Part shown: positions 7,481-24,464 of the stretch, one piece after another
Layout of the letters: each line of letters begins with the position of its first letter
How positions within the stretch are numbered: the first letter of the stretch is position 1
Assembly (NCBI GenBank): GCA_902777205.1
Contig: CACYSU010000001.1
Location: 21,832-85,831 of the forward strand
From: an uncultured Rhodospirillales bacterium
GTDB taxonomy: Bacteria > Pseudomonadota > Alphaproteobacteria > CAAGCB01 > CAG-977
Reading direction: 5' to 3'
Length of the DNA stretch: 64,000 nt
Translations under genes and position numbers: made by a program
The notes under the pieces: model-generated
What the model saw: the letters and a program-made list of their open reading frames with translations, nothing else
Database searches by the model: none
What the model was told of the DNA's origin: nothing

Positions 7481-7484
7481 GAAT

Positions 7485-7560
7485 GGTGCGCCCGGCGGGA
7501 TTCGAAACCACGACCCTCGGCTTCGGAGGCCGATACTCTATCCAGCTGAGCTACGGGCGC
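7485..7560 (-). tRNA. tRNA-Arg (anticodon CCG).
   Basis: The reverse complement is GCGCCCGTAGCTCAGCTGGATAGAGTATCGGCCTCCGAAGCCGAGGGTCGTGGTTTCGAATCCCGCCGGGCGCACCA. Full cloverleaf, anticodon loop CUCCGAA, CCA encoded. Confidence 0.9.
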
Positions 7561-7670
7561 GTCTGTAAAGCACACAATACCCGATTTGATAAAAAAAACA
7601 ATTAAAATTTAAAGCGTGCATAAATTACTTGACTAAGCCCTTAAAAACAGATTACTTATCTTATTGTCGT

Positions 7671-7744
7671 TGGGGCGTAGCCAAGCGGTAAGGCAACGGA
7701 CTTTGACTCAGTTAGTCTTGGTTCGAGTCCAGGTTCCCCAGCCA
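7671..7744 (+). tRNA. tRNA-Gln (anticodon UUG). Two mismatches, both on the 3' side of stems.
   Basis: TGGGGCGTAGCCAAGCGGTAAGGCAACGGACTTTGACTCAGTTAGTCTTGGTTCGAGTCCAGGTTCCCCAGCCA. It resembles E. coli tRNA-Gln (3-bp D stem, UUCGA T-loop, G73, CCA). G29 is opposite A41 and C6 is opposite U67. Confidence 0.75.
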
Positions 7745-8132
7745 ATCACAAGCCCTTGATTTTCAAGGGATTTTTTGTTTTCCGGCAGACAATTTACAAA
7801 GCCTTCGGGAAAACTCCGGTCAACCGACGGTCAACCCCGACACCGTTCAAATGTCATCAATCTTCCTCATTCATCATCAGTCAAAAGCGTAAAAAACGCA
7901 ATCCGTATTTTCTTTTTTTTCCGTCCGGTAATGATAATCAATCACAATCATACACGGGGGATATTGCAAACAAGGCGTTGATATGCTTAGATTGATAACA
8001 GCTTTTTAGCACAGACCGGTATTTACCGAGCCTGCACACAATTCAATCGAAACCGACATCATTTATTTGATGAAGGACGTGTGCGCCGGTGTTTCTGTGT
8101 GTTCAAGCCTTCGTCAAAGAAAGGAGGAACAC

Positions 8133-8357
8133 ATGGAACGAACCTGTAGAGAAGCCTGCAACATATCCCCCGCCGGATTGATGACACCGCGTGACGCCGC
8201 CGTTTACATCGGCGTCAAGATCAACACGCTTGCCGTCTGGCGTATGACGAACAAATACGGCTTGCCGTTTGTCAAATTGGGAAAAGTCGTCCGATACCGC
8301 AAAACCGATTTGGACGAGTGGATCAACAAAAACGTATCAACAGACAGGGCGGAGTAA
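8133..8357 (+). CDS. AlpA-family phage/ICE transcriptional regulator-excisionase (HTH).
   Basis: ATG 8133 is preceded by AAGGAGG. The sequence RDAAVYIGVKINTLAVWRMTNKYGLPFVKLGKVVRYRKTDLDEWI fits the AlpA/Xis HTH pattern. Confidence 0.7.
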   Translation: MERTCREACNISPAGLMTPRDAAVYIGVKINTLAVWRMTNKYGLPFVKLGKVVRYRKTDLDEWINKNVSTDRAE

Positions 8358-8371
8358 TCCGCCCTGTTTTA
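8346..8371 (+). terminator. Intrinsic terminator overlapping the AlpA stop.
   Basis: Perfect inverted repeat CAGGGCGGA-gtaa-TCCGCCCTG followed by TTTT. Confidence 0.5.
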
Positions 8372-8501
8372 GTAATTTTTTATTTTTCAATCAAACGACG
8401 ATATGGCAGGGGAGTATAACAGGCATAGGCAGAATGACGGTTTATCCGCCAATCAGGAGAGTATTTGAGTTAAGTCCCCATTCATAAATATTTTTGCAGA
8501 A

Positions 8502-9293
8502 TCACAGTTTTTGCAGATACGGAATCAATGTTTCGTGTGATAACAATTTAACATCAGCCGCATTTGCCAGTTTTCTCGCGGAATCGGTATAATCTTGATT
8601 GGAAACGACGCACGCATAATCGCAATTATAAAATTTCTGTCCCGCGATGACTTCCTGAACTGCGGAATTTCCGATAAGACTTGAATAGAATTTACACTGT
8701 ATCGCGATATGAGTCCGGTCTTTTCTGACAATTAAATCAACACCCTGATCACCCGTTTTCGGTGTCATTCCACATTCAAAACCGGCTGATACGCAAAGTT
8801 CACGAACAAACCGTTCATAATCTTCGCCTGTTTGAATATTCGATACATTAAAATCAATTTCCGCAACTTCTTTTGCTTTTTCAAAGCAACGGAAGAAAAA
8901 CTCTTGCGGCATATTCTTATTTTCTCTCAAAACTTTTCTAACAAAATACTTTAAATCTTCATCAAACTGTTCTTCGTTGAAAGTTTCAATTCCATATTCA
9001 TCAACAACATTTGCTCTATTAAACTTCGTTTTCAAAACAGCATAATGTTTTACCATTTCAGAAATTACATATTTTTCGAACTCATCAAATTCCTTTTCTG
9101 CAACTTCTTTTGCTTGTTCAAAGCAATGAAAGAAAAACGCTTGTGGCATATTTTTATTTTCTTTCAAAACGTTTCTAACAAAATACTTTAAATCTTCATC
9201 AAACTGTTCTTCATTAAAAGTTTCAATTCCATATTCATCAACCACTTTCGCTCTACTGAACTTTGTTCTCAAAACAGCATAATGTTTTACCAT
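8502..9293 (-). CDS. Mrr-catalytic-domain (PD-(D/E)xK) restriction-endonuclease-like protein with a duplicated N-terminal 79-aa module.
   Basis: The C-terminal region (GDQGVDLIVRKD...IAIQCKFY...) fits the Mrr_cat D...(D/E)xK pattern. N-terminal residues 1-79 and 80-158 are about 85% identical. Confidence 0.65.
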   Translation of the reverse strand: MVKHYAVLRTKFSRAKVVDEYGIETFNEEQFDEDLKYFVRNVLKENKNMPQAFFFHCFEQAKEVAEKEFDEFEKYVISEMVKHYAVLKTKFNRANVVDEYGIETFNEEQFDEDLKYFVRKVLRENKNMPQEFFFRCFEKAKEVAEIDFNVSNIQTGEDYERFVRELCVSAGFECGMTPKTGDQGVDLIVRKDRTHIAIQCKFYSSLIGNSAVQEVIAGQKFYNCDYACVVSNQDYTDSARKLANAADVKLLSHETLIPYLQKL

Positions 9294-9350
9294 TTCAGAA
9301 ATTACATATTTTTCAAACTCGTCAGCTTCTTTTTTACGTATTTCTTCTTC
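8820..9350. repeat. In-frame tandem duplication (2 x 237 bp) plus a partial third copy at the 5' end of the Mrr-like gene.
   Basis: The anchor string cataatgttttaccatttcagaaattacatattttt occurs at 9041 and 9278, a period of 237 bp (79 codons). A partial copy runs from 9294 to about 9350. Confidence 0.8.
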
Positions 9351-9928
9351 TCTACGTTTTTCTTCTTTACGGTTTTCTGATTCTATACGTATAGACCGTT
9401 TTTCCGCCTCTATATAGCAATCAAATAGAAAAGATTTCGCATAATATTCTCTTCCACTTTCACTAAATTCTTTTTTTTGAAAAATCTTCCAAATATTTCA
9501 AAAAGTTGACGTAATGAAGCTCTCTATATTTTCTATTTAAGATAGGATAGTTTTTCATCATCCGTTCAACCATACGATCTTTTATCGACATTTTTAACAG
9601 CCTCCTTTTCTCTTTTTCCCGTTGAAACCCCTTATAAAAAACTCCGTAGCACTCCTAAATAATGGAAAGGCTTCCCTTTCTTTCCCCCAAGTATGCAAAA
9701 CAGCCCATCCCGCAACAACCAGAGCAGAGAGAGCATCAAAAAAATCTTCCAGTTTCTCAAAAAACAATACCAGAAATGAATCATACTTCCAATTCCCGTA
9801 TCTTATCAAAAATATGCTGGGCTAATTCGTTCCATTTTTGCGAGTGCTGTAAGTCAAGTTTCCTTTTATTATCAAAATCCATAGAAAGCTCTTCTCTTAT
9901 AGATTTCCCTGCACGTTCATAGTCATCT

Positions 9929-10342
9929 TTATATTTCAGTTTTTCTAATATTCTTTCTTGAAGCAAATGATTTTTTTTTAAAAGTTTCTGCAATTTCATT
10001 GATTTCCGTTTCAATTTTTTTTCCAAACAGAACACAGCCTTTTTTAGCCAGATTTTGTATTTCCTGACCAACAATCCAAAAATTCTTTTCAGGATCTGAA
10101 CCATCGCCCATTTCGTCAGCAGGAGTATGTTTAAATGTTTGTGTTTTATAGCCAAGCTTTTTTGTTTCTTCCCAAAAAGCCCACCTTTTTTCGAACAAAG
10201 CCAAATTATGCTGACGATTTTGAATTATTCCCTGCCAAACAGCTATACCGATTGCAATAAAGGCGGCAATCATAGGGCCAAAAGCGGATAAATAATCAAT
10301 CCAATCTTTTGGTTGTTCTATTATAATCGGATAAGCAAACAT
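9929..10342 (-). CDS. Hypothetical membrane protein. Possibly frameshifted into ORF 9781..10155.
   Basis: 137 aa with an N-terminal hydrophobic helix. The run T10AAA at about 9968-9981 separates two frames that read as one continuous coiled-coil-like protein. Confidence 0.45.
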   Translation of the reverse strand: MFAYPIIIEQPKDWIDYLSAFGPMIAAFIAIGIAVWQGIIQNRQHNLALFEKRWAFWEETKKLGYKTQTFKHTPADEMGDGSDPEKNFWIVGQEIQNLAKKGCVLFGKKIETEINEIAETFKKKSFASRKNIRKTEI

Positions 10343-10359
10343 TTTGGAATCCCTAAAAA

Positions 10360-10545
10360 TTATTGCTTATTTTGTCCATTAATTAACGTATTCAATTTAT
10401 CCAAAGTATCAGCAAAATTGTAGGCTTCATCAATTTCTTTCAACCGATTCAAAGAGTTTGTGACCAACAGCATTTTCGCTTCATCACCAATGTCCGTTCT
10501 TTCCAATATCCGCCGTATTTTTGACAGATGAAATTCTTTTATCAA
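10360..10545 (-). CDS. Small hypothetical protein (61 aa).
   Basis: ORF only. Co-oriented with and adjacent to the membrane protein. Confidence 0.25.
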   Translation of the reverse strand: MIKEFHLSKIRRILERTDIGDEAKMLLVTNSLNRLKEIDEAYNFADTLDKLNTLINGQNKQ

Positions 10546-10807
10546 TCCGTGAAAGAAAAAAGTCTCAAATTCATTCCGTTGGCCTTTTATCGCTCAGGAA
10601 TCCCATTAATTATCCTATCCGATTTATCTAAGGTTGCAACGAAAATAATGCCTTTTATTCCTCCTTTCGCCGTTCGTTCAGCATCGAAACCATTGTCGAA
10701 AACACTGGAAAGCTATCGGATATTCACTTTATCTGGTTGAAAAAAAGAAAACTGTAAAAAAACGAAATGAAACGGATTGCACTGACTCAGCTGGAAGAAT
10801 AGAAATC

Positions 10808-11744
10808 TTACTTTACCACCCACTTGCCGCCTTTGAGAGAACCGACGCGCTCAATGATGCCTTCGTCTTTCATCTTTTTCAGCTGCCATTTAATGCCGCT
10901 TTCGGAAATACCGACGATTTCCGCCAGTTCCTGACGGCTGATCTGCGGATTCTTCCTGATTGCGTCCAAGATTTTTTGGGTAGTTTTTTCCCTAGTTTTT
11001 TCCCTGTTTTTCTTTCCGGCTTTATCGTCCGCTTCGGCAAACGGCTTGTTATAGCGGAACGTTACGCGGAAGAAAGTGTCCGAAATCTCGAACACGTCCG
11101 GCGCGTAAGCGTTCAAAATCCGCCGCACGCCCGACCCAAGACGCTCGACCAGTTCCATATCCTGAAAAATTCTCATCAATTCGGGATTGCGCGGACACGA
11201 CTTGCCGTTGAAAAAGTCTTCTTTCGTCATTCCCCACGGCAAGCCGCCCGTTGACGTGATCTCTATTCTGTCCGAAAATATTTCGAACTTCGGCGGATTG
11301 TTGTATGAATAATCGTTATGCAGTATCGCGTTAATGACCGCTTCTCTTAATGCTTGCGGATCGACCATCGGGCGTTCTTCGCGCTTGGTTGCCGTTACGC
11401 GAGCGTAAATCCTGTTTTCAACGAAAAACTTGTCCAAGACCTGTTCGGTCGCCTTGATTAAAGAGCAATATCCGAAGTTCTTATTTTCCGTCAAAACGTC
11501 CCGATCCGTTCAGACGTTCGCCGGCGATGTCAAACAAGCCCATAACGGACGGACGAATCCCCGTTATCAGGCGGTCTTTGATTTCCAGTTGAAGCGCGTC
11601 GCACTTGTCAACGCCGACGGGATTCCCGTTCTTGTCAATGCCGATATAGATCGTTCCGCCGTGCGCGTTCAGAAACGCCACCGCTTCTTTTTCCAAAGCG
11701 GCAGTCAGTTTTTCTTTGTATTCCGTGCGTTCGTTTTCAACCAT
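10808..11744 (-). pseudogene. AlbA_2 (Schlafen-like divergent AAA) + HATPase_c_4 + C-terminal wHTH protein (RecG-C-like 'putative transcriptional regulator'), disrupted by a frameshift near 11481-11494.
   Basis: ORF 11481..11744 encodes the AlbA_2 N-domain. ORF 10808..11494 encodes the ATPase-like and wHTH part (QELAEIVGISESGIKWQLKKM). The two overlap by 14 nt in different frames. Confidence 0.5.
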
Positions 11745-12184
11745 AAAGCACCCCTTTTCCTATTTATAAAAGATAACGCCGCCATTCTCAAACAAGAAAT
11801 TTTTTTGCCGTTTTTGTGCCACAAAAAGGCTATCCTGCAAAAAAAGTCGGATATCTGTTTTTCAAACATTTAGGCGGCGGGGAAGTCTTTGATATTTCAG
11901 AGGGGCTTTCCTTTGCAGGATACGCGATTTGTCGGACAAAATCGCACGTGGAATCCCGCCTTACGCCTCTTTGCCCTGCCGGTTTTGTCCCGACCCGGTA
12001 AAGTCCGTCCCTTTCAATCCGACAATCTGCAAATTAAATCCGTTTATTTTCAATAAGATATAAACCATTTTCGCGCTTTTACGGCGGAAATTGCACGTTT
12101 GCAAAATTGCCAAGCGGTCGGCGTCGGTCTTTTCTGGAAGAGTTCCGTCAAAAGGCGGTCATTTTTACGAAAGGACACCAAACT

Positions 12185-12403
12185 ATGAAAACATATTTAA
12201 CACGCAAGGAAGCTTCCTCTTACCTGATGGAAAAGGGATTGAACCGGACGTCGGCGACGTTGGCGAAATACGCGACGATCGGCGGCGGTCCGAAGTTCCG
12301 CAAGTTCGGCAAAACGCAAGTCGTTTACGATGTCGCGGACTTGGACGCTTGGGTGGCGGGACAGCTTTCCGCGCCCGTTCATTCGACTTCGGAACAGAGG
12401 TGA
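12185..12403 (+). CDS. AlpA-family HTH regulator/excisionase (second copy).
   Basis: ATG 12185 is preceded by AAAGGA. MKTYLTRKEASSYLMEKGLNRTSATLAKYATIGGGPKFRKFGKTQVVYDVADLDAWV. Confidence 0.7.
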   Translation: MKTYLTRKEASSYLMEKGLNRTSATLAKYATIGGGPKFRKFGKTQVVYDVADLDAWVAGQLSAPVHSTSEQR

Positions 12404-12408
12404 ACGGT

Positions 12409-12720
12409 ATGGCAAAAGTGAAGATTGCTTTACGATTGCCGCCCGAACACAAAGCGATGCTCGACAGGTTTGACAACCCGTCGGGCGTCGCCCGCAGATT
12501 TATCGCGGCGGGGTTGGCGAAAGCGAACGCTCCGGGAACGAAAGAAATCGAAAAGCTGACGGAAATCCGCGAGGAACTGCGTCGGATCGGCGTCAATCTG
12601 AATCAGATCGCCCGCGCGTTGAACGGCGGCGCGGAAGCGAAAAACATCAAAGAACACTTGGAACGCCTTGCGCTTTTGCGGGAAAGGATTCTCCGCCTGT
12701 TGAGGTATTACTATGGTTAA
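12409..12720 (+). CDS. mobC: MobC-family mobilization (relaxosome accessory) protein.
   Basis: Contains the conserved R-I-G-V-N-L-N-Q-I-A-R motif. ATG 12409 is preceded by GAGGTGA. Confidence 0.8.
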   Translation: MAKVKIALRLPPEHKAMLDRFDNPSGVARRFIAAGLAKANAPGTKEIEKLTEIREELRRIGVNLNQIARALNGGAEAKNIKEHLERLALLRERILRLLRYYYG

Positions 12721-13456
12721 ACGCAAACACGATTGGCTTGACGAGCATATCCGCGGCATCCGGCGGGAGCGTCCAGGACTGCCCTTTCATTACGAGCCTT
12801 TACAAAAGCACTTTATCAGCCTGTCCCGTTCCCGTCCGTTTGAAGCGGTGTTCAAGATAGTCGGTTACGCCAAAAGCGTCGGCACGGTTTGCGCTATGGC
12901 GGAATACGTCGCGGAAAAGTCGAAAGGCTTGGAAGAAAAGCTGACCTTGACGGACGAAACGGAAACGCGTCTGACGGCGCAGGAGTTCAAAGAACGGCTG
13001 ATCGAAGAACCGGAAAGCGGACGCAAAAACGGGCGGTGCGCCGTTCATTTTATCGTGTCTTTCCCGAACGGGTGCGGTATGGCCTCGGAGGATTTGGAAG
13101 CGTTTGCGACCGAATATATGCGGCCGTTCGCCGAAAACGGATATTCGTATGTGTTCGCCGCGCACCGTCATCAACGGCACAAACACATCCACTTTATTTT
13201 GAAACTGAACAACGGCTTGAAACGGTTGGAGTTCAATCGGCGGGAAATCGAGCAAATGCGCTTGCGCCAGTCCGAAATCGCCAGACAGTTCGGCGTCGAA
13301 TTGCAGGCGACGCGGTTCCGGGACAGGGACTTTTCTCTGACGCAAGTCGTCATTCCCCGCAAACACAAAACGCTTGAACAGCTGAAACGATCCCGCGCCG
13401 CCGCCGCCCGTCCCAAGCCCGCAGAACATTCAAAAGAAAGAGGTATCGAACGATGA
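12713..13456 (+). CDS. Relaxase/mobilization nuclease domain protein (MOBQ/MOBP-like), short at 247 aa.
   Basis: Histidine triad H-R-H-Q-R-H-K-H-I-H-F-I-L. Start overlaps the mobC stop (ATGGTTAA). Confidence 0.75.
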   Translation: MVKRKHDWLDEHIRGIRRERPGLPFHYEPLQKHFISLSRSRPFEAVFKIVGYAKSVGTVCAMAEYVAEKSKGLEEKLTLTDETETRLTAQEFKERLIEEPESGRKNGRCAVHFIVSFPNGCGMASEDLEAFATEYMRPFAENGYSYVFAAHRHQRHKHIHFILKLNNGLKRLEFNRREIEQMRLRQSEIARQFGVELQATRFRDRDFSLTQVVIPRKHKTLEQLKRSRAAAARPKPAEHSKERGIER

Positions 13457-13463
13457 CATTTTT

Positions 13464-15074
13464 TTATTGTTGTTCAATAGAAATCGCTGCATATCCCCAT
13501 TCCATTCTTTTTTTGTTAAAACTTGGAATACGGATTCCAGAAACAGCCTGATTGTCTATAAGATGAGCTTCCGCTATTAGTTTTTGAGAAATATAAACGT
13601 CTTCGACAAAACCGAACGAAGCATTTTCGGGGATCATTAAAACACCCGAAAATGAGTGTTTTAAAGAAGATGCTTCATTCGTTTCTTTAACGGAAACTGT
13701 TTCTTCTTTTCCAATGCCATACTCAATGGTCTTGGTTTCAACGACGGAATAAATCGCCGGCGGATTAAGCTTCGAAAAGGGTATCACGGCATCATTGAGA
13801 TTCTCAAAAAGTATATGAAAAACTTTCTTTTCATAATTGACGTGATCGACAATTCCTTTCTTCGTTTTTGCCAAATCCCATTCTGCTCCATCTCTTTTGC
13901 GGATATCAAGAATATGGAATTTGTCCTTTTCCATTTTTCCTTTTACCCAAACGGGCGTTCCGTTCGGGAAATTTTCTTTTACTGATTTAAACACTCCGGA
14001 CAAGACGATTCTATTGTCGGCAAGTTGAATAAAAACTTTTCTTTTTTGAGGTTTCTTATTAAAGAAGTCTCCGATAATGCCGGAATAATCGGGCAAATTT
14101 TCTGTTAGCAATTTGCTTGCCTGTAAAGAGTTTTCCCGATAAAAAGCATCATTTACCTGAAGCGGCGTTACAGAATCTTCACGACTTTTATGCCAAGCGT
14201 TATCAAGCGGCTTAAGAGACCAACCGTTATCTTCTATTAGTTTTTTCATTGATTGAAAAATACTTTTAGCTCTGCCCAAATCGTTTTTTTCTTCCAACAT
14301 CTGCGCAATGCTCAGGTAGATTTTATACTTAAAGTTATCATCTTCCGGACACAGAACGGCTTTACAAAGGCAGGAAAATTTCAGTTCGTCGTCCGTTATG
14401 CAATCCGCCAAAAGTTTCCACGCCCAAGAACAATTACTCTTTTCCAACAAAAACTCTTTTGCTGTCTCTGCCGCTTCTTCTTTTTTTCCAACGGAAAGCA
14501 ATAGTTCAACGTTATCTTTTAAAAGAAACTCGTTTTCAGGACACTTTTTACTCGCAAGGTCAATATAAGGAAGAATCCAATTAACGGCATTTTCCGTATT
14601 TCTAAGATCACCCCTTAAAATATCCTTCACGGCATAACGGATGCTTTTTTCCGCCAGAGACGGATATTCATTCTTGCCATCCTTGCTTTTTCCTTTTACC
14701 CAATCATCATCTTTTAGTTCGTCCAGATTCCACAAATAAAGAAAATGGATCAAACGAAAATCGTTTTCTATAAGAAAATCTTTTAAATCGAGTTGTTCCC
14801 ATAAATGGACAACTTGAAACAAAAAAAGGTGATGAACCTGGGAAACCTTTTTCTTTTTCCTGAAAAAATAAGCGTATTCATTAACGCATTTTTTAACACC
14901 GGAATAATTTTCTTCCTGAATGTGTTTTTTTAACAACTTATATAAAGTCCACGCGTAAGAAACAAGGCTTTCTTCGTTTCCCTGTTCGGCCAGGCTTTTA
15001 TATATTTCACGCGCTTCTTCCAACAAACCTTTATCGGATAATTCCTTTGCTTTTAAATAAAGATCGGTATCCAT
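13464..15074 (-). CDS. Hypothetical TPR-like repeat protein with two C-terminal cold-shock-like OB-fold modules. Partner of the helicase.
   Basis: 536 aa from ATG 15074. RBS AGGAA sits 7 nt upstream. The start is one nt after the helicase TGA (TGAtATG). An alternative TTG at 15101 is possible. The N-terminal half is alpha-helical and repeat-like. The C-terminal half has two ...FGFVEDVYIS... / ...HVNYEKKVFHILF... CSD-like segments. Confidence 0.65.
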   Translation of the reverse strand: MDTDLYLKAKELSDKGLLEEAREIYKSLAEQGNEESLVSYAWTLYKLLKKHIQEENYSGVKKCVNEYAYFFRKKKKVSQVHHLFLFQVVHLWEQLDLKDFLIENDFRLIHFLYLWNLDELKDDDWVKGKSKDGKNEYPSLAEKSIRYAVKDILRGDLRNTENAVNWILPYIDLASKKCPENEFLLKDNVELLLSVGKKEEAAETAKEFLLEKSNCSWAWKLLADCITDDELKFSCLCKAVLCPEDDNFKYKIYLSIAQMLEEKNDLGRAKSIFQSMKKLIEDNGWSLKPLDNAWHKSREDSVTPLQVNDAFYRENSLQASKLLTENLPDYSGIIGDFFNKKPQKRKVFIQLADNRIVLSGVFKSVKENFPNGTPVWVKGKMEKDKFHILDIRKRDGAEWDLAKTKKGIVDHVNYEKKVFHILFENLNDAVIPFSKLNPPAIYSVVETKTIEYGIGKEETVSVKETNEASSLKHSFSGVLMIPENASFGFVEDVYISQKLIAEAHLIDNQAVSGIRIPSFNKKRMEWGYAAISIEQQ

Positions 15075-15075
15075 A

Positions 15076-17865
15076 TCAGCATTCCTGTAGATGTTGGGCA
15101 ATAAGACAAGCTAAGTCGTTAGCTTCCGTCTCAGATGAAGAAAATTTTTTCACGACTTTCGGTGCAGCAAGGAAGTCCTGTGTTGATCCTCTATACGAAA
15201 AATCAAGAACGGAGATCCGATCGTTTTTAAAGAACGTATAACGAAGCGTAAAAGGGATTTCTTGCAAAGAAATAACCTTATAGCCTTGTTCTTCTGCGAT
15301 TTTTGATATTCTGGCATCAAAATTCCGCTTGAAATCATCTGTCGGCAATGCCCTGTCAATCGTAACTTTCCCAATAAAACATCCATACAAACCGTTAATT
15401 TTTTCTGAAATTTTTTCGGAAAGAGTGTTCCTGTTTTTTGGAGAAATCTTCGTTATGAAATAGCTTCCGTTATAGTAGATGTCGAATATTGAATTTTCTG
15501 CTCCGCTACCAAAAACATATTCTTCCATATAGGCGTTCGATTTTGTTGAAATGATTTTGATATCCGTGCCGTCAAGAGCGGACAGAACAAATCTGTTGAT
15601 TTTCGCTATCGGCGTTTCTTCCATATCCGAAACGTTTTTTTGCGTATTGGTTTTATCGTATTTGTTTTGCACCGTCATTTCTTTTCTTCCAAAATCAACG
15701 GGGGCTTTGATTTCACTTCCTATATCCCTATTTCTGAAATTTAAAAGATACAGTTTCCGTTTGCAACGCGTTACCGCCGTATAAAGCTCATGGAAGTATT
15801 CCGTTTTATTTCTATTTTGAGCGAGCACATCCGCAATGACGTAATCCCATTCACTTCCCTGTGCTTTATAACAGGTGATCGCGTATCCGAATTTAACGCA
15901 AAGGGCATTAAAGAACGGATCCGTTTTCAGCCTGTTTTTAAATTCTTCCGAATTCGCTTTGATACCAATATCTCCCATTCTTATCTTAAAATTTATATAC
16001 TGGGATTTTTTTTCATCGGAAGATAAATCCACATGGTTGCTGTAAAGAAGATTTTCAATGATATAAACATCCCGCATGTTAAACAGCTTGTCGTCAACAT
16101 CTTTAAACTGTAAATCAACTTTTCTATATATGATCGTTACCCATTTCGTTTCATTTGTATTTTCGTTTTTAGTGGATATACGAGCTTTTTGTTCGATACG
16201 TTCTTTAACGTTCGTAACAACCCCGTAATCTCCGTTATAAACGGTATAGCCTCCGATAAACGCCGTTTTTGTGATTATCAGCTTGTCCCCTTTCTGCAAT
16301 TCGGTCTTTTCGGTCGTTTCGGTTTTGTGAAGCGGTGCGTCCGGAAACAGGATTTTCCTGACGGATTGATTCAAATCGGCAATTCTTGCGTTTTCCCAGG
16401 CAATAACCATACAGTTCTTTAAAGACCTTACGGATCCGTCATATATTTCTTTAAAACTGTTTTCAAAATCCGTTGAAATTCGGATATCCGATGAATCAGG
16501 ATCGACATGCAGTTTATAAAAATTACCGTTTTCAATACTATCCCGTATTTGTGTTGCGAATTTTAATATATCGCCGTCTTTCTGACGAACGATATCTGTC
16601 ATCAGAAATTCCGAAGCTGAAGCTCCGTGAATGCAGTTTTTCAGATACTCTGCCGACAAAGCTGGGGAAAAACCTTTTTTATCGTCCGACGCCACCGGCG
16701 GTAATTGAGCGGGATCGCCAATAAAAATTATTTTTTTATCATGATCGTTGTTATCCAAATTCACATATTCCAAAAAGTCGGATAGAAGTTTCCCTGTTCC
16801 GAATTTAATAAATTCGGCTTCGCTGTTACTATCGGATACCATTGACGCTTCATCAACGATATACACCGTATTGGCGGGATTATCGTTGACTTTAAGTTCT
16901 GCATAAAAGCGGTATGTTTCCGAATATTCGACACCTTCCGTCTTATATTCTTTCATCCCGCTGATATTGTAAATTAGGCTGTGAAGTGTTCCGGCGCTTG
17001 CCCCCGCTTTTTGCGCAAGCACCTGAGAGGCTTTTCCCGTCGGAGCCGCCAATTTATAACAACGTCCTTTATTAGCCAGGAACTCGACCAATCCTTTGAC
17101 AATAAAAGTTTTACCTGTTCCCGCATATCCTTTTAACAGGAAAATATGTTCTTGAGGATTGCGAAGAAAATCCGCTATTTTCCGTAAAGCCTCCGATTGG
17201 CTTGGCGACAGGGTGTAATTATCAAAATACACTTCCAAAGAATCATTTTCATCTAAGATCCTTTCAGAAACCGAATTGTCTATTTTGATTTCGGCACATA
17301 CTTCTGAAGATTTTTGTGAAAATCTTTTCTGTTCCTGTTTATCCTCCGCCGTTTCCTGATTGTCCGGAATCTCAAATTGAGAGATTTCTTCTATGTTTTT
17401 CTTTTCTTCTTCCGATTGATCAGATTTCGGACATTCTTCTTCTTTCAACGGAGGAATAAAATCCATTTCGGCGTCTTTTCCCGTTTTAACCTTGTAATAC
17501 CAAACGGAAATATCATAGACATTCTTCAACGTTTCGATTTGTTCTTCATCTGTCAGAGGTTTATCTCCGATCTTCGGATGAACTATCTTGTTGACGATCA
17601 AGCGCACCGAATGAAATTTCGGTAAAATATCATATCCGACCAAACGCATAAATTTTAAATTCTTGAGCCGTTCGTGCAAGGTTGCCGCTTTTTTTGTCGG
17701 TATGCAAAACTCTGTATAAATCATTCTGACGAGAGTTTCGATAAATCCGCGCATTTTTATCATCGCGCGTTCAGGATTTGAAAAAATATTTTTTTCAGCC
17801 AATGCTGTAAATTCGTATAAATTGGGGAAAGATTCACTTAAAAATTCAAAATTCTTGGACATCAC
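15076..17865 (-). CDS. DUF4145-like N-domain + SF1 RecD/TraA-family helicase (AAA_30/UvrD_C_2) + unknown C-terminal domain of about 230 aa.
   Basis: 929 aa. Walker A is GYAGTGKT. Motif Ia is LAAPTGKAS. Walker B is VYIVDEASM. Motif III is IIFIGDPAQLPPV. Motif V is YAITCYKAQGSEW. Motif VI is YTAVTRCKRKLYL. The N-terminal 115 aa ends in R-L-I-V-N-K-I-V-H, which is DUF4145-like. Confidence 0.85.
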   Translation of the reverse strand: MMSKNFEFLSESFPNLYEFTALAEKNIFSNPERAMIKMRGFIETLVRMIYTEFCIPTKKAATLHERLKNLKFMRLVGYDILPKFHSVRLIVNKIVHPKIGDKPLTDEEQIETLKNVYDISVWYYKVKTGKDAEMDFIPPLKEEECPKSDQSEEEKKNIEEISQFEIPDNQETAEDKQEQKRFSQKSSEVCAEIKIDNSVSERILDENDSLEVYFDNYTLSPSQSEALRKIADFLRNPQEHIFLLKGYAGTGKTFIVKGLVEFLANKGRCYKLAAPTGKASQVLAQKAGASAGTLHSLIYNISGMKEYKTEGVEYSETYRFYAELKVNDNPANTVYIVDEASMVSDSNSEAEFIKFGTGKLLSDFLEYVNLDNNDHDKKIIFIGDPAQLPPVASDDKKGFSPALSAEYLKNCIHGASASEFLMTDIVRQKDGDILKFATQIRDSIENGNFYKLHVDPDSSDIRISTDFENSFKEIYDGSVRSLKNCMVIAWENARIADLNQSVRKILFPDAPLHKTETTEKTELQKGDKLIITKTAFIGGYTVYNGDYGVVTNVKERIEQKARISTKNENTNETKWVTIIYRKVDLQFKDVDDKLFNMRDVYIIENLLYSNHVDLSSDEKKSQYINFKIRMGDIGIKANSEEFKNRLKTDPFFNALCVKFGYAITCYKAQGSEWDYVIADVLAQNRNKTEYFHELYTAVTRCKRKLYLLNFRNRDIGSEIKAPVDFGRKEMTVQNKYDKTNTQKNVSDMEETPIAKINRFVLSALDGTDIKIISTKSNAYMEEYVFGSGAENSIFDIYYNGSYFITKISPKNRNTLSEKISEKINGLYGCFIGKVTIDRALPTDDFKRNFDARISKIAEEQGYKVISLQEIPFTLRYTFFKNDRISVLDFSYRGSTQDFLAAPKVVKKFSSSETEANDLACLIAQHLQEC

Positions 17866-18063
17866 AAAACCTGTGCTTACGATGTGGAAACACTATCAGT
17901 GTAAAGCTTTTTATCCATAAAACAAGGATAATATCGCTTGTGATATAAAAAGTGGCTCTATCGAATATTTTATCAAGCACTTTCCCGAATAACTGATAAA
18001 ATACATAACTTTTTAGTAATTTAGAGGGCTTCTGTTTTGAAAAAAAGAAGCCCTCTAATTGCC

Positions 18064-19242
18064 TTACACCCCGATCAATTCCGCGATTTTTTCGCTGACG
18101 ACGTTGGCGGCGTCAACAACAACCTTTTCCGTCAGGTGCGTGTATCGGTTCGTAATCGTGTTGATGTGATGCCCCAACAATCCCGCGATAATATTGTCAG
18201 AATATCCCAACGCCGCCGCCATTGACGCGAAACTGTGCCTTAAAGCGTGCAGGCAGAAGCCCGTTATCCCGATTTCCGGCTTGACGTGCGTCGCAAAATA
18301 CGCCGGCATTTTCGCCGTTACTTCGGGCTTGAAAAGGTTGCCCTCTGTCGGATCGCCGCTCCGTTCTTTCAAAAACAGCAGATACCTTTTCGCCGCGCTT
18401 CCGAACGGACGGTTTTGCGCTCCCGTCTTCGTGTCTGGAAAGCGAAACGCCTGATTGTCAAAATCGACATATTCCCACTTCAACGTCGTGATCTCGCTTC
18501 TGCGACACCCCGTCAACGCCAACAAAATAAAAATGCTCCTGACCGTTTCTTCCCGTTCGTGCTTGATTTGAAGAATGTTCCCGAACTTCACGAACCCTTT
18601 TTCGTCAAGGAAGACCATTCTTTTCGCCGTCGAAAGCGTGTCCAGTCTGATTGCCGGATTCATATCCGCCCAATCGTTGCGAATGGCGAACTCATACATC
18701 GAGCAAAGCGTCTTTCGCGCGTGATTTGCCGCCGCGACAAACTTGTGATCCGCCGGATAACCACGCCTGTCCATATAAGCTCCGCCCACCATATCGTTGT
18801 AGAACTTCTGAACGTCGGCGCGGCGCAACTCCTTGATAAAACGGTTCCCGAAAGCCGGTAAAATCTGACTTCTGACGGAAGCCGAATACACGGCGAAAGA
18901 AGACGCTTTGATGCGCGGCTTCCGGTCGGTCAGGAACTTGTCGGCAAGATCGGCGACCGTCATTTCTTTGCGCTTTTCGATTTTGTCGGAAGCGGGATCT
19001 TTGCCCTGAACGACCAAAGCCAGTATTTTCTTGGCTTCGTCGCGGGCTTGCGCCGGAGCGATCTGCGTCGTCTTGGCAATCGTGATTTTCTTTTGCTTGC
19101 CGTAAACGTTCCGATACATAACGATATAGCTTGCGGACGATTTGCCCACCCGCACGCCGAAACCTTTTAAAACGTCGTCAAAATAAGTCTTTTCCACGCC
19201 GTCAAACGTCAGGGAATTGATAAAAGTCTTGTTCAAATTCAT
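18064..19242 (-). CDS. int: Tyrosine-type site-specific integrase (P4-like, N-terminal arm-binding domain).
   Basis: 392 aa. N-terminal G-F-G-V-R-V is DUF4102-like. C-terminal HALRHSFASMAAALG...LLGH...TNRYTHL carries the R-H-R-Y catalytic signature. Confidence 0.9.
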   Translation of the reverse strand: MNLNKTFINSLTFDGVEKTYFDDVLKGFGVRVGKSSASYIVMYRNVYGKQKKITIAKTTQIAPAQARDEAKKILALVVQGKDPASDKIEKRKEMTVADLADKFLTDRKPRIKASSFAVYSASVRSQILPAFGNRFIKELRRADVQKFYNDMVGGAYMDRRGYPADHKFVAAANHARKTLCSMYEFAIRNDWADMNPAIRLDTLSTAKRMVFLDEKGFVKFGNILQIKHEREETVRSIFILLALTGCRRSEITTLKWEYVDFDNQAFRFPDTKTGAQNRPFGSAAKRYLLFLKERSGDPTEGNLFKPEVTAKMPAYFATHVKPEIGITGFCLHALRHSFASMAAALGYSDNIIAGLLGHHINTITNRYTHLTEKVVVDAANVVSEKIAELIGV

Positions 19243-19732
19243 AACTCATTACCTTTCATACCGCGGTAACGCCACGGTAACTTTGTGAAGGAATCGACTG
19301 AATGAAACAGCCTTTTCCCGAACACGCTTTCAAAGGAAATGAAAACAAGATATTCCAATAAAATCAATATGTTGGAAAACACTTTCCAACACGGGGGAAA
19401 ACAAATAAAAACAAGAAATCTTTTCTTTTCAAGAACTCCCCGAACCATCGCAGATGAATTCGGGGATGTTTCCCGTTTTGTTTGACGCAAAACGAATGAC
19501 GGCGCATCTCTGTGCCGATTGGATAAAAGGCTTTTGAAGACCCCGCGCCCGCTAAGGTGCTGTCCCGTTTATTACAACGGGCATGGGGTCAGTATAGTAA
19601 AATTCCGTTTTTTCAGGCAACAAAAAAATAATCGCCAAAGACGTGGATAAAATGGAAGATGATGTGGCCGGAAACATTCGGGCGGTATTTACGTATTCCA
19701 AAATTTTTCGGCACGGCGCGGAAAGGGGGCAT

Positions 19733-19791: not shown

Positions 19792-21495
19792 TTATTTCTT
19801 TTCGGCTTCCTTCTTGGCGATCGCGGCGCCCAGAATGTCGCCCAGGGAAGCGCCGGAATCGGTCGAACCGAATTCGGACAAAGCTTCTTTTTCTTCGGCG
19901 ATTTCGCGCGCTTTGATGGACAAGGAGATTTTGCGGGTCTTCGCGTCGATCTGTGTGACTTTCGCGTCAACCTTGTCGCCGACGGCGAAACGTTCCGGAC
20001 GCTGTTCGGAACGGTCGCGGGACAGGTCGCCCTTGCGGATGAAGCCCTTGGAACCGTTGACATCGAGTTCGATGCCGTTGTCGGTGATCGCGGAAACGAC
20101 ACCCGTCACAACGTCGCCTTTCTTGATGTCGGAAACGGCGTCGGCGAACGGATCGTTCGACAGCTGTTTGACACCCAGAGAAATGCGTTCTTTTTCAACA
20201 TCGACATCCAATACTTTGGCTTTGATGACGTCGCCTTTCTTGTAGTCTTTGACGGCTTCTTCGCCGCTCTTGTCCCAAGACAGGTCGGACAGGTGCACCA
20301 TGCCGTCGATGTCGCCTTCCAATCCGACGAACAGACCGAATTCGGTGATGTTGCGGATTTCGCCTTCAATGACGGAACCGGCCGGATGTTTTTCAGCAAA
20401 CGCTTCCCACGGATTGGGCAGGCACTGTTTCAAGCCCAAAGAGATGCGGCGTTTCGCCTGATCGACGTCCAAAACCATGACTTCGACTTCTTGAGAAGTG
20501 GAGATGATTTTGCCCGGATGCGTGTTTTTCTTCGTCCAGCTCATTTCGGAAACGTGCACCAAACCTTCGACGCCCTGTTCCAATTCGATGAACGCGCCGT
20601 AGTCGGTGATGTTTGTCACGCGGCCGGTCAGCTTCGCGCCGACGGGGTATTTCTGTTCGACGCCGGCCCAAGGATCGGCTTCCAGCTGTTTCATACCCAG
20701 CGAAATGCGCTGCGTTTCGGGGTTGAAGCGGATGATCTGCACCTTGACGGGCTGACCGATCGTCAACGCTTCGGACGGGTGGTTGATGCGTTTCCAAGCG
20801 ATGTCGGTCACATGCAGCAAACCGTCAACGCCGCCCAAATCAATGAACGCGCCGTAATCGGTGATGTTCTTGACAACGCCGTCCAGAATCTGGCCTTCGG
20901 ACAAATTCTTGATCAGTTCGGAACGCTGTTCGACGCGGGTTTCTTCCAAAACGGCGCGGCGGGAAACAACGATGTTGCCACGGGCGCGGTCCATTTTCAA
21001 AATCTGGAACGGCTGCGGGGTGCCCATCAGGGGGCTGACGTCGCGAACCGGACGGATATCGACCTGCGAACCGGGCAGGAAAGCGATGGCGCCGGACAGA
21101 TCGACCGTAAAGCCGCCTTTGACGCGGCCGAAGATGACGCCGGTGACGCGTTCGCCGTTGGCCTGGGCTTTTTCCAATTCGTTCCAAGCTTCTTCGCGGC
21201 GCGCTTTTTCGCGGGACAGAACGACCATGCCGTCCTTGTCTTCGTAACGGTCGATGTAAACGTCAACCTTGTCGCCGACTTTCATTTCCGCGTTAAAGCC
21301 GAATTCGCGGCGGGCGATGCGACCTTCGGATTTCAAACCGACGTCGATCGTGACGAAATCGTCGTTCAAAGCAACGATCGTGCCTTTGACGACAGAGCCT
21401 TCCAGCCCTTTGTCTTCGCCGAACATTTCGTTGAACAGTTCAGCAAAATTTTCTTTCATCGCCGGAATTTCTTCGGCTGTAGTTTTAGTTACCAT
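19792..21495 (-). CDS. rpsA: 30S ribosomal protein S1.
   Basis: Six S1 domains. True start is ATG 21495 (MVTKTTAEEIPAMKENFAELF...). The ORF-track start at 21609 is an upstream in-frame extension. Confidence 0.95.
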   Translation of the reverse strand: MVTKTTAEEIPAMKENFAELFNEMFGEDKGLEGSVVKGTIVALNDDFVTIDVGLKSEGRIARREFGFNAEMKVGDKVDVYIDRYEDKDGMVVLSREKARREEAWNELEKAQANGERVTGVIFGRVKGGFTVDLSGAIAFLPGSQVDIRPVRDVSPLMGTPQPFQILKMDRARGNIVVSRRAVLEETRVEQRSELIKNLSEGQILDGVVKNITDYGAFIDLGGVDGLLHVTDIAWKRINHPSEALTIGQPVKVQIIRFNPETQRISLGMKQLEADPWAGVEQKYPVGAKLTGRVTNITDYGAFIELEQGVEGLVHVSEMSWTKKNTHPGKIISTSQEVEVMVLDVDQAKRRISLGLKQCLPNPWEAFAEKHPAGSVIEGEIRNITEFGLFVGLEGDIDGMVHLSDLSWDKSGEEAVKDYKKGDVIKAKVLDVDVEKERISLGVKQLSNDPFADAVSDIKKGDVVTGVVSAITDNGIELDVNGSKGFIRKGDLSRDRSEQRPERFAVGDKVDAKVTQIDAKTRKISLSIKAREIAEEKEALSEFGSTDSGASLGDILGAAIAKKEAEKK

Positions 21496-21915
21496 AAAAT
21501 TCAGATCCTTCACAAAAAGTGTATTCTTGCCGTCCGGTTGTGTCCGGAGGTCTGCACGTTGAAAACGACGAAGCCGCCCGTGCCTTGCGGTTTCGCGCCC
21601 TATATACACGAAAACGGGCTGTTTTGCAAGGGTTTTCGACGGAAAAGAAACGCTTTTCTTTTAAGCGAAAGTTTGATAAACTTTTTTTGTTCCCGAAAAC
21701 GGGAACAGGGCGTCAGAAACCCTTTTCAATAGTGGTCGCATACGTGTATGGCGACTGAAAAATTATACGCCGATTTCTGCCCAAGGGCGGGTGTCGGCGT
21801 CTATAAGGCTATGCGCGAAAAACGTCGAGCCGTCTTTGCTATTGAACGGTTTCTGAACACTCCGCCCACCTGCAGCAGGTGGGTTTTGTGTTTTTGACTT
21901 TAAGGAGTTTCGGAA

Positions 21916-22776
21916 ATGAAAAAGAAATATATCGCGTTCATGGCGTTGCCGTTGCTGTGCGGGTGTGCGTTAAACTCAAGAGATTTTGAGTACGTTCAAG
22001 GAAATTTATATGGAGAAAATTCGTCAATGGTTTCGGATACGATTGGTAAAAAAGATGAAATCATAGATATAGATAATGATGTTTTTAAAACTGATAAGAC
22101 GATTCTTTCATATATGCCGGAAGAAAACGGTTGCCGTTTTAAGCAAATTTACGGATATGTTAAGGAGGGAAATTATAGGGAAACTGATGTCAGAGAATTA
22201 TTTGTAGATACGCCGTGTGCAGAATTTGATTTCAAAAACTATGCAGAATATCTGAACGAAAAACGTGTAAAGAGACAAGTTGAGCTCTTTGAAAAAAATA
22301 AAGACGATAAAATGTTTGTTTCATTTTTAAAAAAAGGAAAAAATTGTGTCATAGACTTTTCTGCCGGTGTTGCTGAGAATGGAAAATATCGCGAAACGGA
22401 TGTAAAACGTGTGACTTTCGGTTCAAGAGACTGTAAAGGAATCATAGATGATTTTATTGTAGGAAATTGGAACTGGATCGATGAAAAAAAGATAAAACAT
22501 CCTGTCGAAAATGAGGACTTTTGGAGTCATAAAACGGCAGGAAAAACAGATAAAGCAGTTGTTTCCATGAAACAGGACAGAAGCAGTTGTGTCTATAGCA
22601 GATCTTACGGTTGGTCTTTGAATGGAAAATTTACGGAAACCGATTTCAAGCAAATCACGTTGGGAAATACACAATGCAGTTATGTACGCTCTTTGGTGAA
22701 AGGAAAACAAAATTCAATTTTTACAGACGGTGAACTTGAGAGCGAGATGAATCTGAAGCCCATTAAAAAGCCTTGA
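21916..22776 (+). CDS. Lipoprotein with three internal G-K/N-Y-R-E-T-D-V-containing repeats.
   Basis: Signal peptide plus lipobox L-L-C-G-C-A. Low GC. Repeat modules of about 80 aa. Confidence 0.6.
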   Translation: MKKKYIAFMALPLLCGCALNSRDFEYVQGNLYGENSSMVSDTIGKKDEIIDIDNDVFKTDKTILSYMPEENGCRFKQIYGYVKEGNYRETDVRELFVDTPCAEFDFKNYAEYLNEKRVKRQVELFEKNKDDKMFVSFLKKGKNCVIDFSAGVAENGKYRETDVKRVTFGSRDCKGIIDDFIVGNWNWIDEKKIKHPVENEDFWSHKTAGKTDKAVVSMKQDRSSCVYSRSYGWSLNGKFTETDFKQITLGNTQCSYVRSLVKGKQNSIFTDGELESEMNLKPIKKP

Positions 22777-22864
22777 ATAAATTTTTATGTTCTATGATGG
22801 CGGAGTGAAAACTCCGCCATTTAGAAATAACTAAAATGTCCGAAGTGTGTATTGCTGCTACGCT

Positions 22865-23350
22865 CTATATCAACACGCTCCACGCCTTTAGCTTGTCGTC
22901 AAACGACAAATGCGCGTTGGCGGGCGAGGTGGACGGCAGAGGGACGAGTGTCAGCGTGTTGGCAAACGGTGCGGTTTTGAACGCTTTTATAAAGCTGTCG
23001 TGCGCTTTTTGCCCGTTGAAAAACACGGTCTTTATCTGCGGATATTGTTTGAAAAAGCGTTCAAAGTCGTTCGGAACGGCGTTGCGGATATCGGAATCCA
23101 AACTGCCGTCGCGGGCGCAGGTCGAAATCACGTCCCACAGCGCGATGTGGCGCGACAAGAGCAAATTCAGCTTGTCGTCATACGAAGCGAACGGGTAGGG
23201 CGCGCCGAACAGCTTTGCCATAATCCGCCAGAACGCGTTTTGCGGGTGGGCGTAATACTGCGCTTGTTCCAGCGATTTTACCCCCGGCATCGACCCCAAA
23301 ATCAATTTGGTGCAGCCGGAATCAACGGACGGGGCGAAACATTCGGGCAT
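22865..23350 (-). CDS. UDG-superfamily DNA glycosylase (TDG/Mug or hypoxanthine-DNA glycosylase-like).
   Basis: GCTKLILGSMPGVKSLEQAQYYAHPQNAFWRIM matches the Mug/UDG motif-1 plus HPxNxFW pattern. Start taken at ATG 23350 to avoid overlapping the neighbouring gene. Confidence 0.65.
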   Translation of the reverse strand: MPECFAPSVDSGCTKLILGSMPGVKSLEQAQYYAHPQNAFWRIMAKLFGAPYPFASYDDKLNLLLSRHIALWDVISTCARDGSLDSDIRNAVPNDFERFFKQYPQIKTVFFNGQKAHDSFIKAFKTAPFANTLTLVPLPSTSPANAHLSFDDKLKAWSVLI

Positions 23351-23354
23351 GGCG

Positions 23355-23963
23355 TTATTTTCCGTTTTCGTTAAATAAATAAAGTTTGTTTTCAATAACT
23401 TCATTCATTAAGTAGCGCAATGTTTTTCTGCGGACATAAGCGTTAACAGTTCCATGATTGAAAAAAGGAGAGAGAAATATTAAGGGAAGCCACATTACAT
23501 CCTTGATTTTTTCAGGGGCGGTTATGGAATAAATTTCTTTATCGCCGGAAAAAACGAACATTGAAACATCTTTGTTGAAATAAATCCACATTGGAAATAT
23601 ACCCAATACAGCACCCCAAATTGCGCCATAGTTGTTTTGGTTTTCAATAGATGTTCCTGTTATTTTTACATCAAAATGCAAATGATATTTACTTTTATCA
23701 TTAAGTGTTGGTACATAATGCACTTTATTAAATAGGTTTGTTTCAGATAAATATTCCCTTATTTTTAATGTCATAGACGTGTAATCATAAAACTGTTCGT
23801 CGCCGGCTTGTTCATAATAGGATAGGGAAAATGTTATGTTTTTCTTTTGTTCCGCCGGTATGGATATGTTTGTATCTAATGAAACATTCGGGATGTATCC
23901 GGATGAGTATGTCGCGCATGAAAACAAGAGGGGTAAGATAAAGAATAAGCTGAAAAATCTCAT
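23355..23963 (-). CDS. Lipoprotein, hypothetical.
   Basis: Signal peptide with lipobox L-F-S-C-A. Low GC. Confidence 0.55.
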   Translation of the reverse strand: MRFFSLFFILPLLFSCATYSSGYIPNVSLDTNISIPAEQKKNITFSLSYYEQAGDEQFYDYTSMTLKIREYLSETNLFNKVHYVPTLNDKSKYHLHFDVKITGTSIENQNNYGAIWGAVLGIFPMWIYFNKDVSMFVFSGDKEIYSITAPEKIKDVMWLPLIFLSPFFNHGTVNAYVRRKTLRYLMNEVIENKLYLFNENGK

Positions 23964-23972
23964 GTTTCCGCC

Positions 23973-24464
23973 TCATTTTTTTTCTTTTGCCAAAAACAAG
24001 GCGAGCTGTTCATAAATATTTGTTTTGTACGATTGGTTTACATATTGGTATGAGTACGAAGTGGATGTTCCATAATATCTGTTATTTCCAACCGTTCCGG
24101 AATAATGGGAAAAGGTCGGGTTGGGGATCGTTAAAACATAGTTGTGTTCAGCTTCTTTTACTTTGGTTGATGAAAGAATAACGACAGTAGCCCCTTTTTC
24201 TTTCGCGGTATCAACGGCCAAGGCTCTGGCCGTCCATTCGTCTATGAAATGAGCGGAACCCAGCAGTATGTAGCCTTGATTTTTATATTCTTGAAAGCGT
24301 TCGGATAAATCCGTCGTTTCAATAACTTTGACAAAAGATTTTTTTGCCAAGGGATGCTCTTGCCGGTCAATGTTTTCGTCATTATAATAAATGGAGAAAT
24401 TATTTTTTTGACAAGCTGATAACAAGAACAGGCAACTGAAAAGGAAAAATGTCTTTTTCATCAT
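23973..24464 (-). CDS. Lipoprotein, hypothetical.
   Basis: Signal peptide with lipobox L-L-S-A-C. Low GC. Confidence 0.55.
   Translation of the reverse strand: MMKKTFFLFSCLFLLSACQKNNFSIYYNDENIDRQEHPLAKKSFVKVIETTDLSERFQEYKNQGYILLGSAHFIDEWTARALAVDTAKEKGATVVILSSTKVKEAEHNYVLTIPNPTFSHYSGTVGNNRYYGTSTSYSYQYVNQSYKTNIYEQLALFLAKEKK

Follow-up and report, generated by a model that had tools for sequence, protein, structure and literature searches.

What does a 79-residue module do in front of a nuclease domain, and does the number of its copies matter? This question is raised by a gene at 8502-9591 on the minus strand of a 64,000-nucleotide stretch of DNA (the window; contig CACYSU010000001.1, positions 21,832 to 85,831) from an uncultured Rhodospirillales bacterium, in which a 237-bp tandem repeat encodes two such modules upstream of an Mrr_cat domain. 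An earlier note, made from the sequence alone, had read the repeat as a recently amplified, variable recognition domain. Our analysis indicates instead that the intact gene probably encodes a stand-alone Mrr_cat nuclease of the defence type, carried as cargo of an integrative mobilisable element and switched off in this strain, with the module possibly serving as an adaptor or regulatory domain. The locus is unstable in two ways. Recombination between the two units, which are 90% identical, has produced one-module alleles with at least two different junctions, as well as conversion mosaics, and slippage in a run of seven A residues (A7) has produced frameshifted alleles with eight (A8).

Gene structure and frameshift

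The features of the gene are as follows.

8502-9591, minus strand: whole gene, 362 residues with A7, interrupted in the window by one additional A (three-frame translations and A7 reconstruction)
9463-9591, minus strand: N-terminal open reading frame (ORF) fragment of 42 codons, beginning at the genuine start codon (ATG at 9591) behind the ribosome-binding site AAAAGGAGGCTGTTAAAAATG
9471-9478, minus strand: A8 homopolymer (T8 on the plus strand) and frameshift site; A7 gives an intact gene, A8 a broken one
9333-9461, minus strand: E/K/R-rich stretch that makes up the greater part of one long helix (AlphaFold2 model, residues 44-102)
9096-9332, minus strand: repeat unit 1, residues 87-165
8859-9095, minus strand: repeat unit 2, residues 166-244
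8523-8831, minus strand: Mrr_cat PD-(D/E)xK domain, residues 254-356 (Pfam PF04471)
8814-8816, minus strand: catalytic E259
8736-8738, minus strand: catalytic D285
8697-8699, minus strand: catalytic Q298
8691-8693, minus strand: catalytic K300
8502-9293, minus strand: 263-residue ORF of the earlier note, beginning at the internal Met100 codon
9780-9809, minus strand: promoter-like site TTGATA-18-TATGAT (10/12), approximately 190 nt upstream of the start codon; a consensus match only

The gene had previously been taken to start at 9293, which would place the modules at the N-terminus. However, no ribosome-binding site was found upstream of the Met100 start at 9293, and the frame remains open upstream of it for approximately 68 further codons without any ATG, GTG or TTG. 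A strong ribosome-binding site (AAGGAGG) precedes the 42-codon ORF, which stops just past the A8 run. When one A was removed from this run, both ORFs were fused into a 362-residue protein, which is identical to the database protein P0254 and differs by one residue from the cluster representative P0001. Its N-terminal region showed 53-63% identity to that of relatives. Moreover, six related contigs (L001-L006) carry A7 and an intact gene. Since the deletion of a single A restores the 362-residue protein, the 263-residue ORF is what a frameshift has left of the gene, and the modules lie in the middle of the protein, not at its N-terminus. The frameshift had been overlooked.

The A8 state is not restricted to the window. 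It was found in nine further contigs (L014-L022) from several studies and assemblers, and the 42-residue fragment has been called as a separate gene in other A8 contigs. The exact 263-residue remnant (P0253) is recorded on 7 other contigs, together with further remnant versions of 263 and 184 residues, the latter being 263 minus 79. Counted over the contigs of the cluster members, approximately 34 of the 46 were intact and approximately 12 were frameshifted, and no inactivating lesion besides A8 was seen among the alleles examined. A sequencing error in the window was rejected as the source of A8, because the independent Illumina contig L015 reproduces the full haplotype of the window over 2.35 kb, including two other homopolymer states, and all nine of these contigs have A8. 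A -1 ribosomal frameshift on A AAA AAA was likewise rejected as a means of rescuing the A8 allele, since the -1 frame runs into a stop; a +1 shift or transcriptional slippage would be needed. Therefore, the window represents a two-module, A8 (off) allele, and the full-length nuclease is probably not made in this strain. The 263-residue ORF called here and in several other assemblies should accordingly be annotated with caution, as a frameshift remnant.

One member of the P0001 cluster departs from this pattern. P0258, of 375 residues and from a 1.6-kb contig, is the same as the intact protein to approximately residue 333, after which 40 unrelated residues replace the end of the nuclease domain; this tail could be the result of an insertion, a rearrangement or a chimeric contig.

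Nuclease domain

The assignment of the C-terminus to the Mrr_cat PD-(D/E)xK nucleases, already proposed in the earlier note, is borne out. The Pfam PF04471 match reached 81.1 bits against a cut-off of 21 (E 8.3e-23), no loss of the catalytic residues was found, and the alignment columns of E259, D285, Q298 and K300 are invariant or nearly so in 87 homologues. In the AlphaFold2 model of the one-module form, the mean predicted local distance difference test score (pLDDT) was 89.8. When the nuclease part of this model was searched with Foldseek, AF1548 (1y88), MspJI and Hjc were matched at probability 1.00, and the Avs4 nuclease was matched as well. The C-terminus is thus an Mrr_cat nuclease domain with an intact E...D...QxK motif, and DNA cleavage is predicted. 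The inactive restriction-endonuclease domain NA-iREase1 (PF22722) was also considered. Its match was marginal (29.5 bits against a cut-off of 27) and lay beneath the far stronger Mrr_cat match, and this identity was rejected since the catalytic residues are intact.

Outside Mrr_cat, no meaningful Pfam match was obtained at E<=1, and the Mrr_N winged-helix domain is not present. PADLOC gave a weak match to type IV enzyme models, which covered the nuclease part only.

A conserved module family upstream of Mrr_cat

In the AlphaFold2 model, the module consists of a helix, a beta-hairpin and two further helices. The module modelled alone had a pLDDT of 90.7 and a predicted template modelling score (pTM) of 0.79, which indicates a confident independent fold. 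Alignments gave the core motif KHxxxLxxKxxQxxxxD(D/E)YGxxxxxx(W/F)xxELxYFxxNV. A profile was built from 23 modules and searched exhaustively against 1.8 billion representatives. It matched 1,477 representative proteins at E<=1e-3, 137 of them at E<=1e-10, and both units of the present protein matched it (E 4e-23 and 1.2e-23). When only the two modules were used as query, a word-indexed protein search returned nothing but P0002 and was uninformative, and neither the module profile nor the whole protein retrieved any PDB sequence.

The company that the module keeps is nearly constant on one side and variable on the other. Among 20 module proteins scanned against Pfam, Mrr_cat lay C-terminal of the module in 18; of the remaining two, one (P0243) had an RNase_T exonuclease in place of Mrr_cat and the other had a Sel1 repeat only. 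On the N-terminal side, transmembrane-like segments were found in approximately 36% of the family, and ankyrin repeats, Sel1 repeats, coiled coils and others also occur. The proposal of a variable recognition or sensor domain is therefore not supported, since the module is among the most conserved parts of the family and the variable part lies N-terminal of it. The module had also been described as acidic, and this held: its isoelectric point (pI) is approximately 5.1 here, and with a family median of 5.7 it is best called mildly acidic.

Duplication of the module was observed in 16 of the 211 module proteins (approximately 7%), one of which has three, and the identity between copies ranged from 25 to 98%. 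The module is a conserved, unnamed helical domain family that is nearly always placed directly upstream of Mrr_cat and that has undergone independent duplication in these members. An otherwise unrelated family member, P0121 (653 residues), has three modules, the last two of which are 98% identical, pointing to a very recent duplication in that protein.

The long charged helix that precedes unit 1 has a repetitive character of its own. Just upstream of unit 1, at 9326-9390 (RKEEKRREEEIRKKE), the coding sequence is of low complexity, with short imperfect repeats of periods 15, 18 and 33 nt.

Age and phase of the tandem repeat

The tandem repeat proved to be real and in frame. Tandem Repeats Finder reported an array at 8858-9324 with a period of 237, 2.0 copies, 91% matches, no indels and a score of 794, and a second repeat search of the window returned the pair 8846-9082 and 9083-9319 at 90% identity. 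The period is divisible by 3, and the repeat keeps the minus-strand reading frame. The anchor string used in the earlier note is present at 9041 and 9278. The high identity between the encoded units also stood, although the value of approximately 85% did not: the units are 89% identical, differing at 9 of 79 residues and 23 of 237 nt. In contrast, the third partial copy that had been described upstream was not there. The array has 2.0 copies, and the upstream similarity is the first 13 codons of unit 1, which are coding. The third copy appeared because the units had been phased from the ATG at 9293, and the tail of the "unit 2" so defined is unrepeated sequence; the similarity between the copies ends near 8850 at the far side of the array.

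The divergence between copy 1 and copy 2 was 0.42 at synonymous sites (dS) and 0.053 at nonsynonymous sites (dN), giving a dN/dS of 0.13. Therefore, both copies have long been kept under purifying selection and the duplication is not recent, contrary to the recent amplification that had been claimed. The longest stretch identical in both copies is 46 nt.

Module number varies among strains

A comparison of strains had been suggested as the way to reveal variation in copy number, and such variation was indeed found. P0002 has 283 residues, which is 362 minus 79, and at the DNA level the one-module contigs L004-L006 lack exactly 237 bp of the two-module sequence and otherwise depart from it at three single-nucleotide polymorphisms (SNPs). 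The 23 sites that distinguish copy 1 from copy 2 were used as markers for the origin of each segment of the unit, with the following results.

L004-L006 and L019: one module, with copy-1 states through unit nt 179 and copy-2 states from nt 188; junction A (nt 180-187)
L020 and L022: one module, with the switch between nt 119 and 161; junction B (nt 120-160)
L021: two modules, with copy-1 markers at nt 64-119 within copy 2; gene-conversion patch

The one-module alleles are thus exact chimaeras of copy 1 and copy 2, as predicted for recombination between the copies. When outgroup modules were compared, the ancestral residues were found to be split between the copies, N26 and N29 being retained in copy 2 and N54, K57 and H69 in copy 1. 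Together with the marker pattern, these outgroup states indicate that the two-module form is ancestral in this lineage and that at least two contractions and one conversion have followed. The opposite order, with a one-module allele as the ancestor, was rejected: all 23 differences would need to have arisen solely in the inner halves of the new duplicate (probability ~1e-7), three reversions to outgroup residues would be required, and a second junction exists. Of the expansion or contraction that had been foreseen, contraction was confirmed and gene conversion was seen in addition, but no three-module allele, and hence no expansion beyond two copies, was found in this lineage. All four combinations of module number (one or two) with A7 or A8 exist, a pattern that calls either for repeated mutation or for recombination between strains.

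Short-read assemblers can collapse repeats, and the repeat or the difference in copy number could in principle be the product of an expanded or collapsed assembly. This explanation can practically be dismissed. Ten independent contigs, produced by several assemblers, show the two-module form, and both forms recur with linked SNPs in many independent assemblies. Between the copies there are 23 differing sites, and identity is never unbroken for more than 46 nt. Junction A falls in an 8-nt window of identity, which is too short for a k-mer collapse. Assembly collapse is therefore excluded for these alleles.

Homopolymer variation at the locus

The A7/A8 polymorphism is one of several of its kind. 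In a 2.35-kb region (8300-10650) compared among 13 sequences, 4 of the 5 homopolymers of at least 7 nt varied in length, one of the four being intergenic, whereas none of the 8 tracts of 5-6 nt did. Between the window and L001, all four indels in an 11-kb homologous stretch (at 10562, 9979, 9478 and 7478) lie in A/T runs of 6-9 nt. Slippage seems to be unusually visible in this AT-rich island.

The gene immediately upstream is affected in the same manner.

9781-10342, minus strand: upstream gene for a 186-residue single-pass membrane protein without a Pfam match, with A runs at 10015-10022 and 9971-9979

This gene is split by A9 at 9971-9979 in the window and in L015, and by A9 at the other run in L004-L006, L014 and L017, on two different SNP backgrounds; it is intact in L001-L003, L016, L019 and L021.

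A contingency gene is expected to have a coding tract whose length polymorphism switches the frame, and the A7/A8 run is such a tract. It is also expected that the tract is more variable than comparable tracts in the background, which was not observed here, as four of the five tracts of at least 7 nt vary. Between an evolved contingency switch and plain slippage at long A runs, the comparison with background tracts favours plain slippage.

Interpretation of the locus

We consider that the intact protein would be ordered as an N-terminal helical region, a long charged helix, two helix-hairpin-helix modules of 79 residues and the Mrr_cat domain. The module may act as an adaptor or regulatory domain, either through oligomerisation or by coupling the variable N-terminus to the nuclease, and the variable N-terminal parts of the family would supply localisation or sensing. 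Defence against phages or other mobile elements by DNA cleavage is the most likely function. Such a nuclease is presumably costly, so its loss or switch-off would be tolerated or favoured, and the frequent off state may reflect either a useful switch or the cost of carrying the nuclease.

Several observations weigh against this reading. The module is not covered by any model in Pfam, NCBIfam, PHROGs or PADLOC, and searches with its fold gave no credible match in PDB (best E 1.6) or BFVD (best E 0.56). Its mild acidity speaks against simple DNA binding, and no partner gene was seen to be conserved beside the homologues. The nuclease activity and the defence role of the module family are predictions throughout. 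Finally, the variation of A runs is not specific to this gene: since four of the five long tracts vary, one of them intergenic, the off state may not be an evolved switch at all but ordinary mutational noise.

The gene is frameshifted here together with the adjacent gene, homopolymer indels are general in the AT-rich island, and the junction-B one-module alleles and the mosaic allele are all on an A8 background. It can thus be argued that the gene is a pseudogene in this strain and that all the variation is neutral decay of dispensable island cargo. We regard this as possible but not probable, because most alleles are intact, those that are off show no further lesion, the dN/dS between the copies is 0.13 and the wider family is large and conserved. 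The same clean off alleles, which account for approximately one quarter of the contigs and in all examined cases share the A8 lesion with no other damage, would fit the opposite view, in which selection maintains A7/A8 as a phase-variation switch and the repeat number as a second device for tuning a costly defence nuclease, so that populations would retain on and off as well as one- and two-module subpopulations. In its favour, all four allele combinations occur, the neighbouring transmembrane-protein gene is likewise switched, at one or the other of two A8 runs and on different SNP backgrounds, and phase-variable restriction genes are known. Nevertheless, this view is doubtful, as contingency tracts are usually longer than a 7-nt A run, the variation follows tract length rather than the gene and extends to an intergenic tract, and recombination between strains could give the four-gamete pattern by itself.

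A more far-reaching proposal is that the module constitutes a new autonomous regulatory domain family for nuclease effectors, represented by approximately 1,500 clusters, whose copy number tunes activation or oligomerisation, and that the locus is a doubly variable defence gene, with the homopolymer and the repeat number both acting as selected switches; as a whole, this seems to us unlikely. The model of the earlier note cast the module as a variable domain for specificity or sensing in a modification-dependent (type IV, Mrr-like) or abortive-infection nuclease, recently amplified and with a copy number that sets recognition. The Mrr_cat domain, the varying copy number and the weak type IV match in PADLOC, confined to the nuclease part, are in keeping with it. 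However, the strong conservation of a module whose neighbours on the N-terminal side are the variable parts, the old duplication (dS 0.42), the lack in Pfam searches of Mrr_N or any other known DNA-reading domain, and the acidity of the module make this model quite improbable.

The wider interest lies in the family. A large, conserved and unnamed domain family accompanies Mrr_cat nucleases on phages, plasmids and genomic islands, and the role of the module, once solved, would explain the control of one common class of single-protein nucleases. The wild populations amount to a natural experiment: alleles with one module, two modules or a mosaic, switched on or off, form a series suited to probing the module.

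Comparison with known systems

Mrr_cat is an effector domain in Avs, in Lamassu-Mrr and in the single-gene system Epona, according to published work. Epona is a cassette of the Vibrio cholerae chromosomal integron, combines Mrr_cat with a two-transmembrane holin-like domain and is active against phages in E. coli (bioRxiv 10.1101/2024.07.02.601686). The present gene resembles it as a single-gene Mrr_cat protein in a mobile or cassette context, and approximately 36% of the module family have a transmembrane-like segment N-terminal of the module; however, with Epona compared by its description only, the protein here differs in having no transmembrane segment, either in its sequence or in the model.

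The stand-alone Mrr_cat "restriction endonuclease" proteins, such as AF1548 (PDB 1y88), are similar in family match, in the E...D...QxK set and in the PD-(D/E)xK fold, and plasmid-borne relatives of the present gene are annotated only as "restriction endonuclease". They are unlike it in that one or two 79-residue modules and a long helix, all without a library model, stand upstream of the nuclease here. E. coli Mrr, a type IV enzyme, shares the catalytic domain family and the Q-x-K variant of the motif, but the protein here is without the Mrr_N winged-helix DNA-binding domain. The nuclease domain also aligns to the models or structures of ZorD, Avs4, Lamassu-Mrr and PADLOC PDC-S02. The alignments are confined to the nuclease part, for ZorD and PDC-S02 to the last ~110 residues rather than the full length, and a helicase, STAND NTPase or SMC partner is neither in the protein nor conserved beside the gene.

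Phase-variable restriction genes are well established. The locus is like the phase-variable restriction-modification genes, with their mod, res and hsdS tracts, in combining an on/off frameshift at a coding homopolymer with variation in the number of an intragenic repeat. It is unlike them in that the tract is short (7-8 A) and that nearby long tracts, including a non-coding one, vary too.

The island and its cargo

The gene lies in a low-GC island at approximately 8000-19300, surrounded by host DNA of approximately 57% GC. The island adjoins tRNA-Arg(CCG) and tRNA-Gln(UUG) at 7484-7744, the only matches that Rfam gave nearby, and its genes include an HTH_17 excisionase-like gene, AlbA_2, HATPase_c_4/HTH, MobC, a relaxase, a TOTE conflict system and a tyrosine integrase. 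A search at seed 12 for att direct repeats on either side of the island returned none.

18064-19242, minus strand: tyrosine integrase, at the far end of the island, the tRNAs being at the near end
13464-17865, minus strand: TOTE conflict system of two genes, one with DUF7017 and S1/CSD-TOTE, the other an AAA_30/UvrD_C_2 helicase with TBP-TOTE

At the position of the TOTE genes, L001 has a resolvase and a UvrD-like helicase, and L004 has an MmeI-type restriction-modification enzyme, so the cargo slot beyond the relaxase is variable. The alphaproteobacterial metagenome-assembled genome UBA2903 carries the same element at the same chromosomal site with other cargo past the relaxase, and the host of the present element is likewise read as a gut-type, UBA2903-like alphaproteobacterium.

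Distant homologues of the nuclease gene are lone genes, one of them an opposite-strand insert among prophage early genes (a moron) and another beside AAA_13 and HNH genes. The upstream transmembrane protein was considered as a conserved partner and rejected, since it is absent beside the more distant homologues.

A second low-GC stretch (0.375-0.41) was observed at 22000-24000, between the gene for ribosomal protein S1 (19792-21609) and that for cytidylate kinase (24495-25154). The ORFs of this stretch, at 21916-22776, 23355-23963 and 23973-24464, have no Pfam match.

Within the island, an AlbA_2 (Schlafen-type) ORF of 87 residues and a HATPase_c_4 plus HTH_24 ORF of 228 residues overlap by 14 nt (10808-11494 and 11481-11744, minus strand). 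They are called as two genes in all related contigs in which the region is whole, and the pair looks like a conserved split of a usually single protein.

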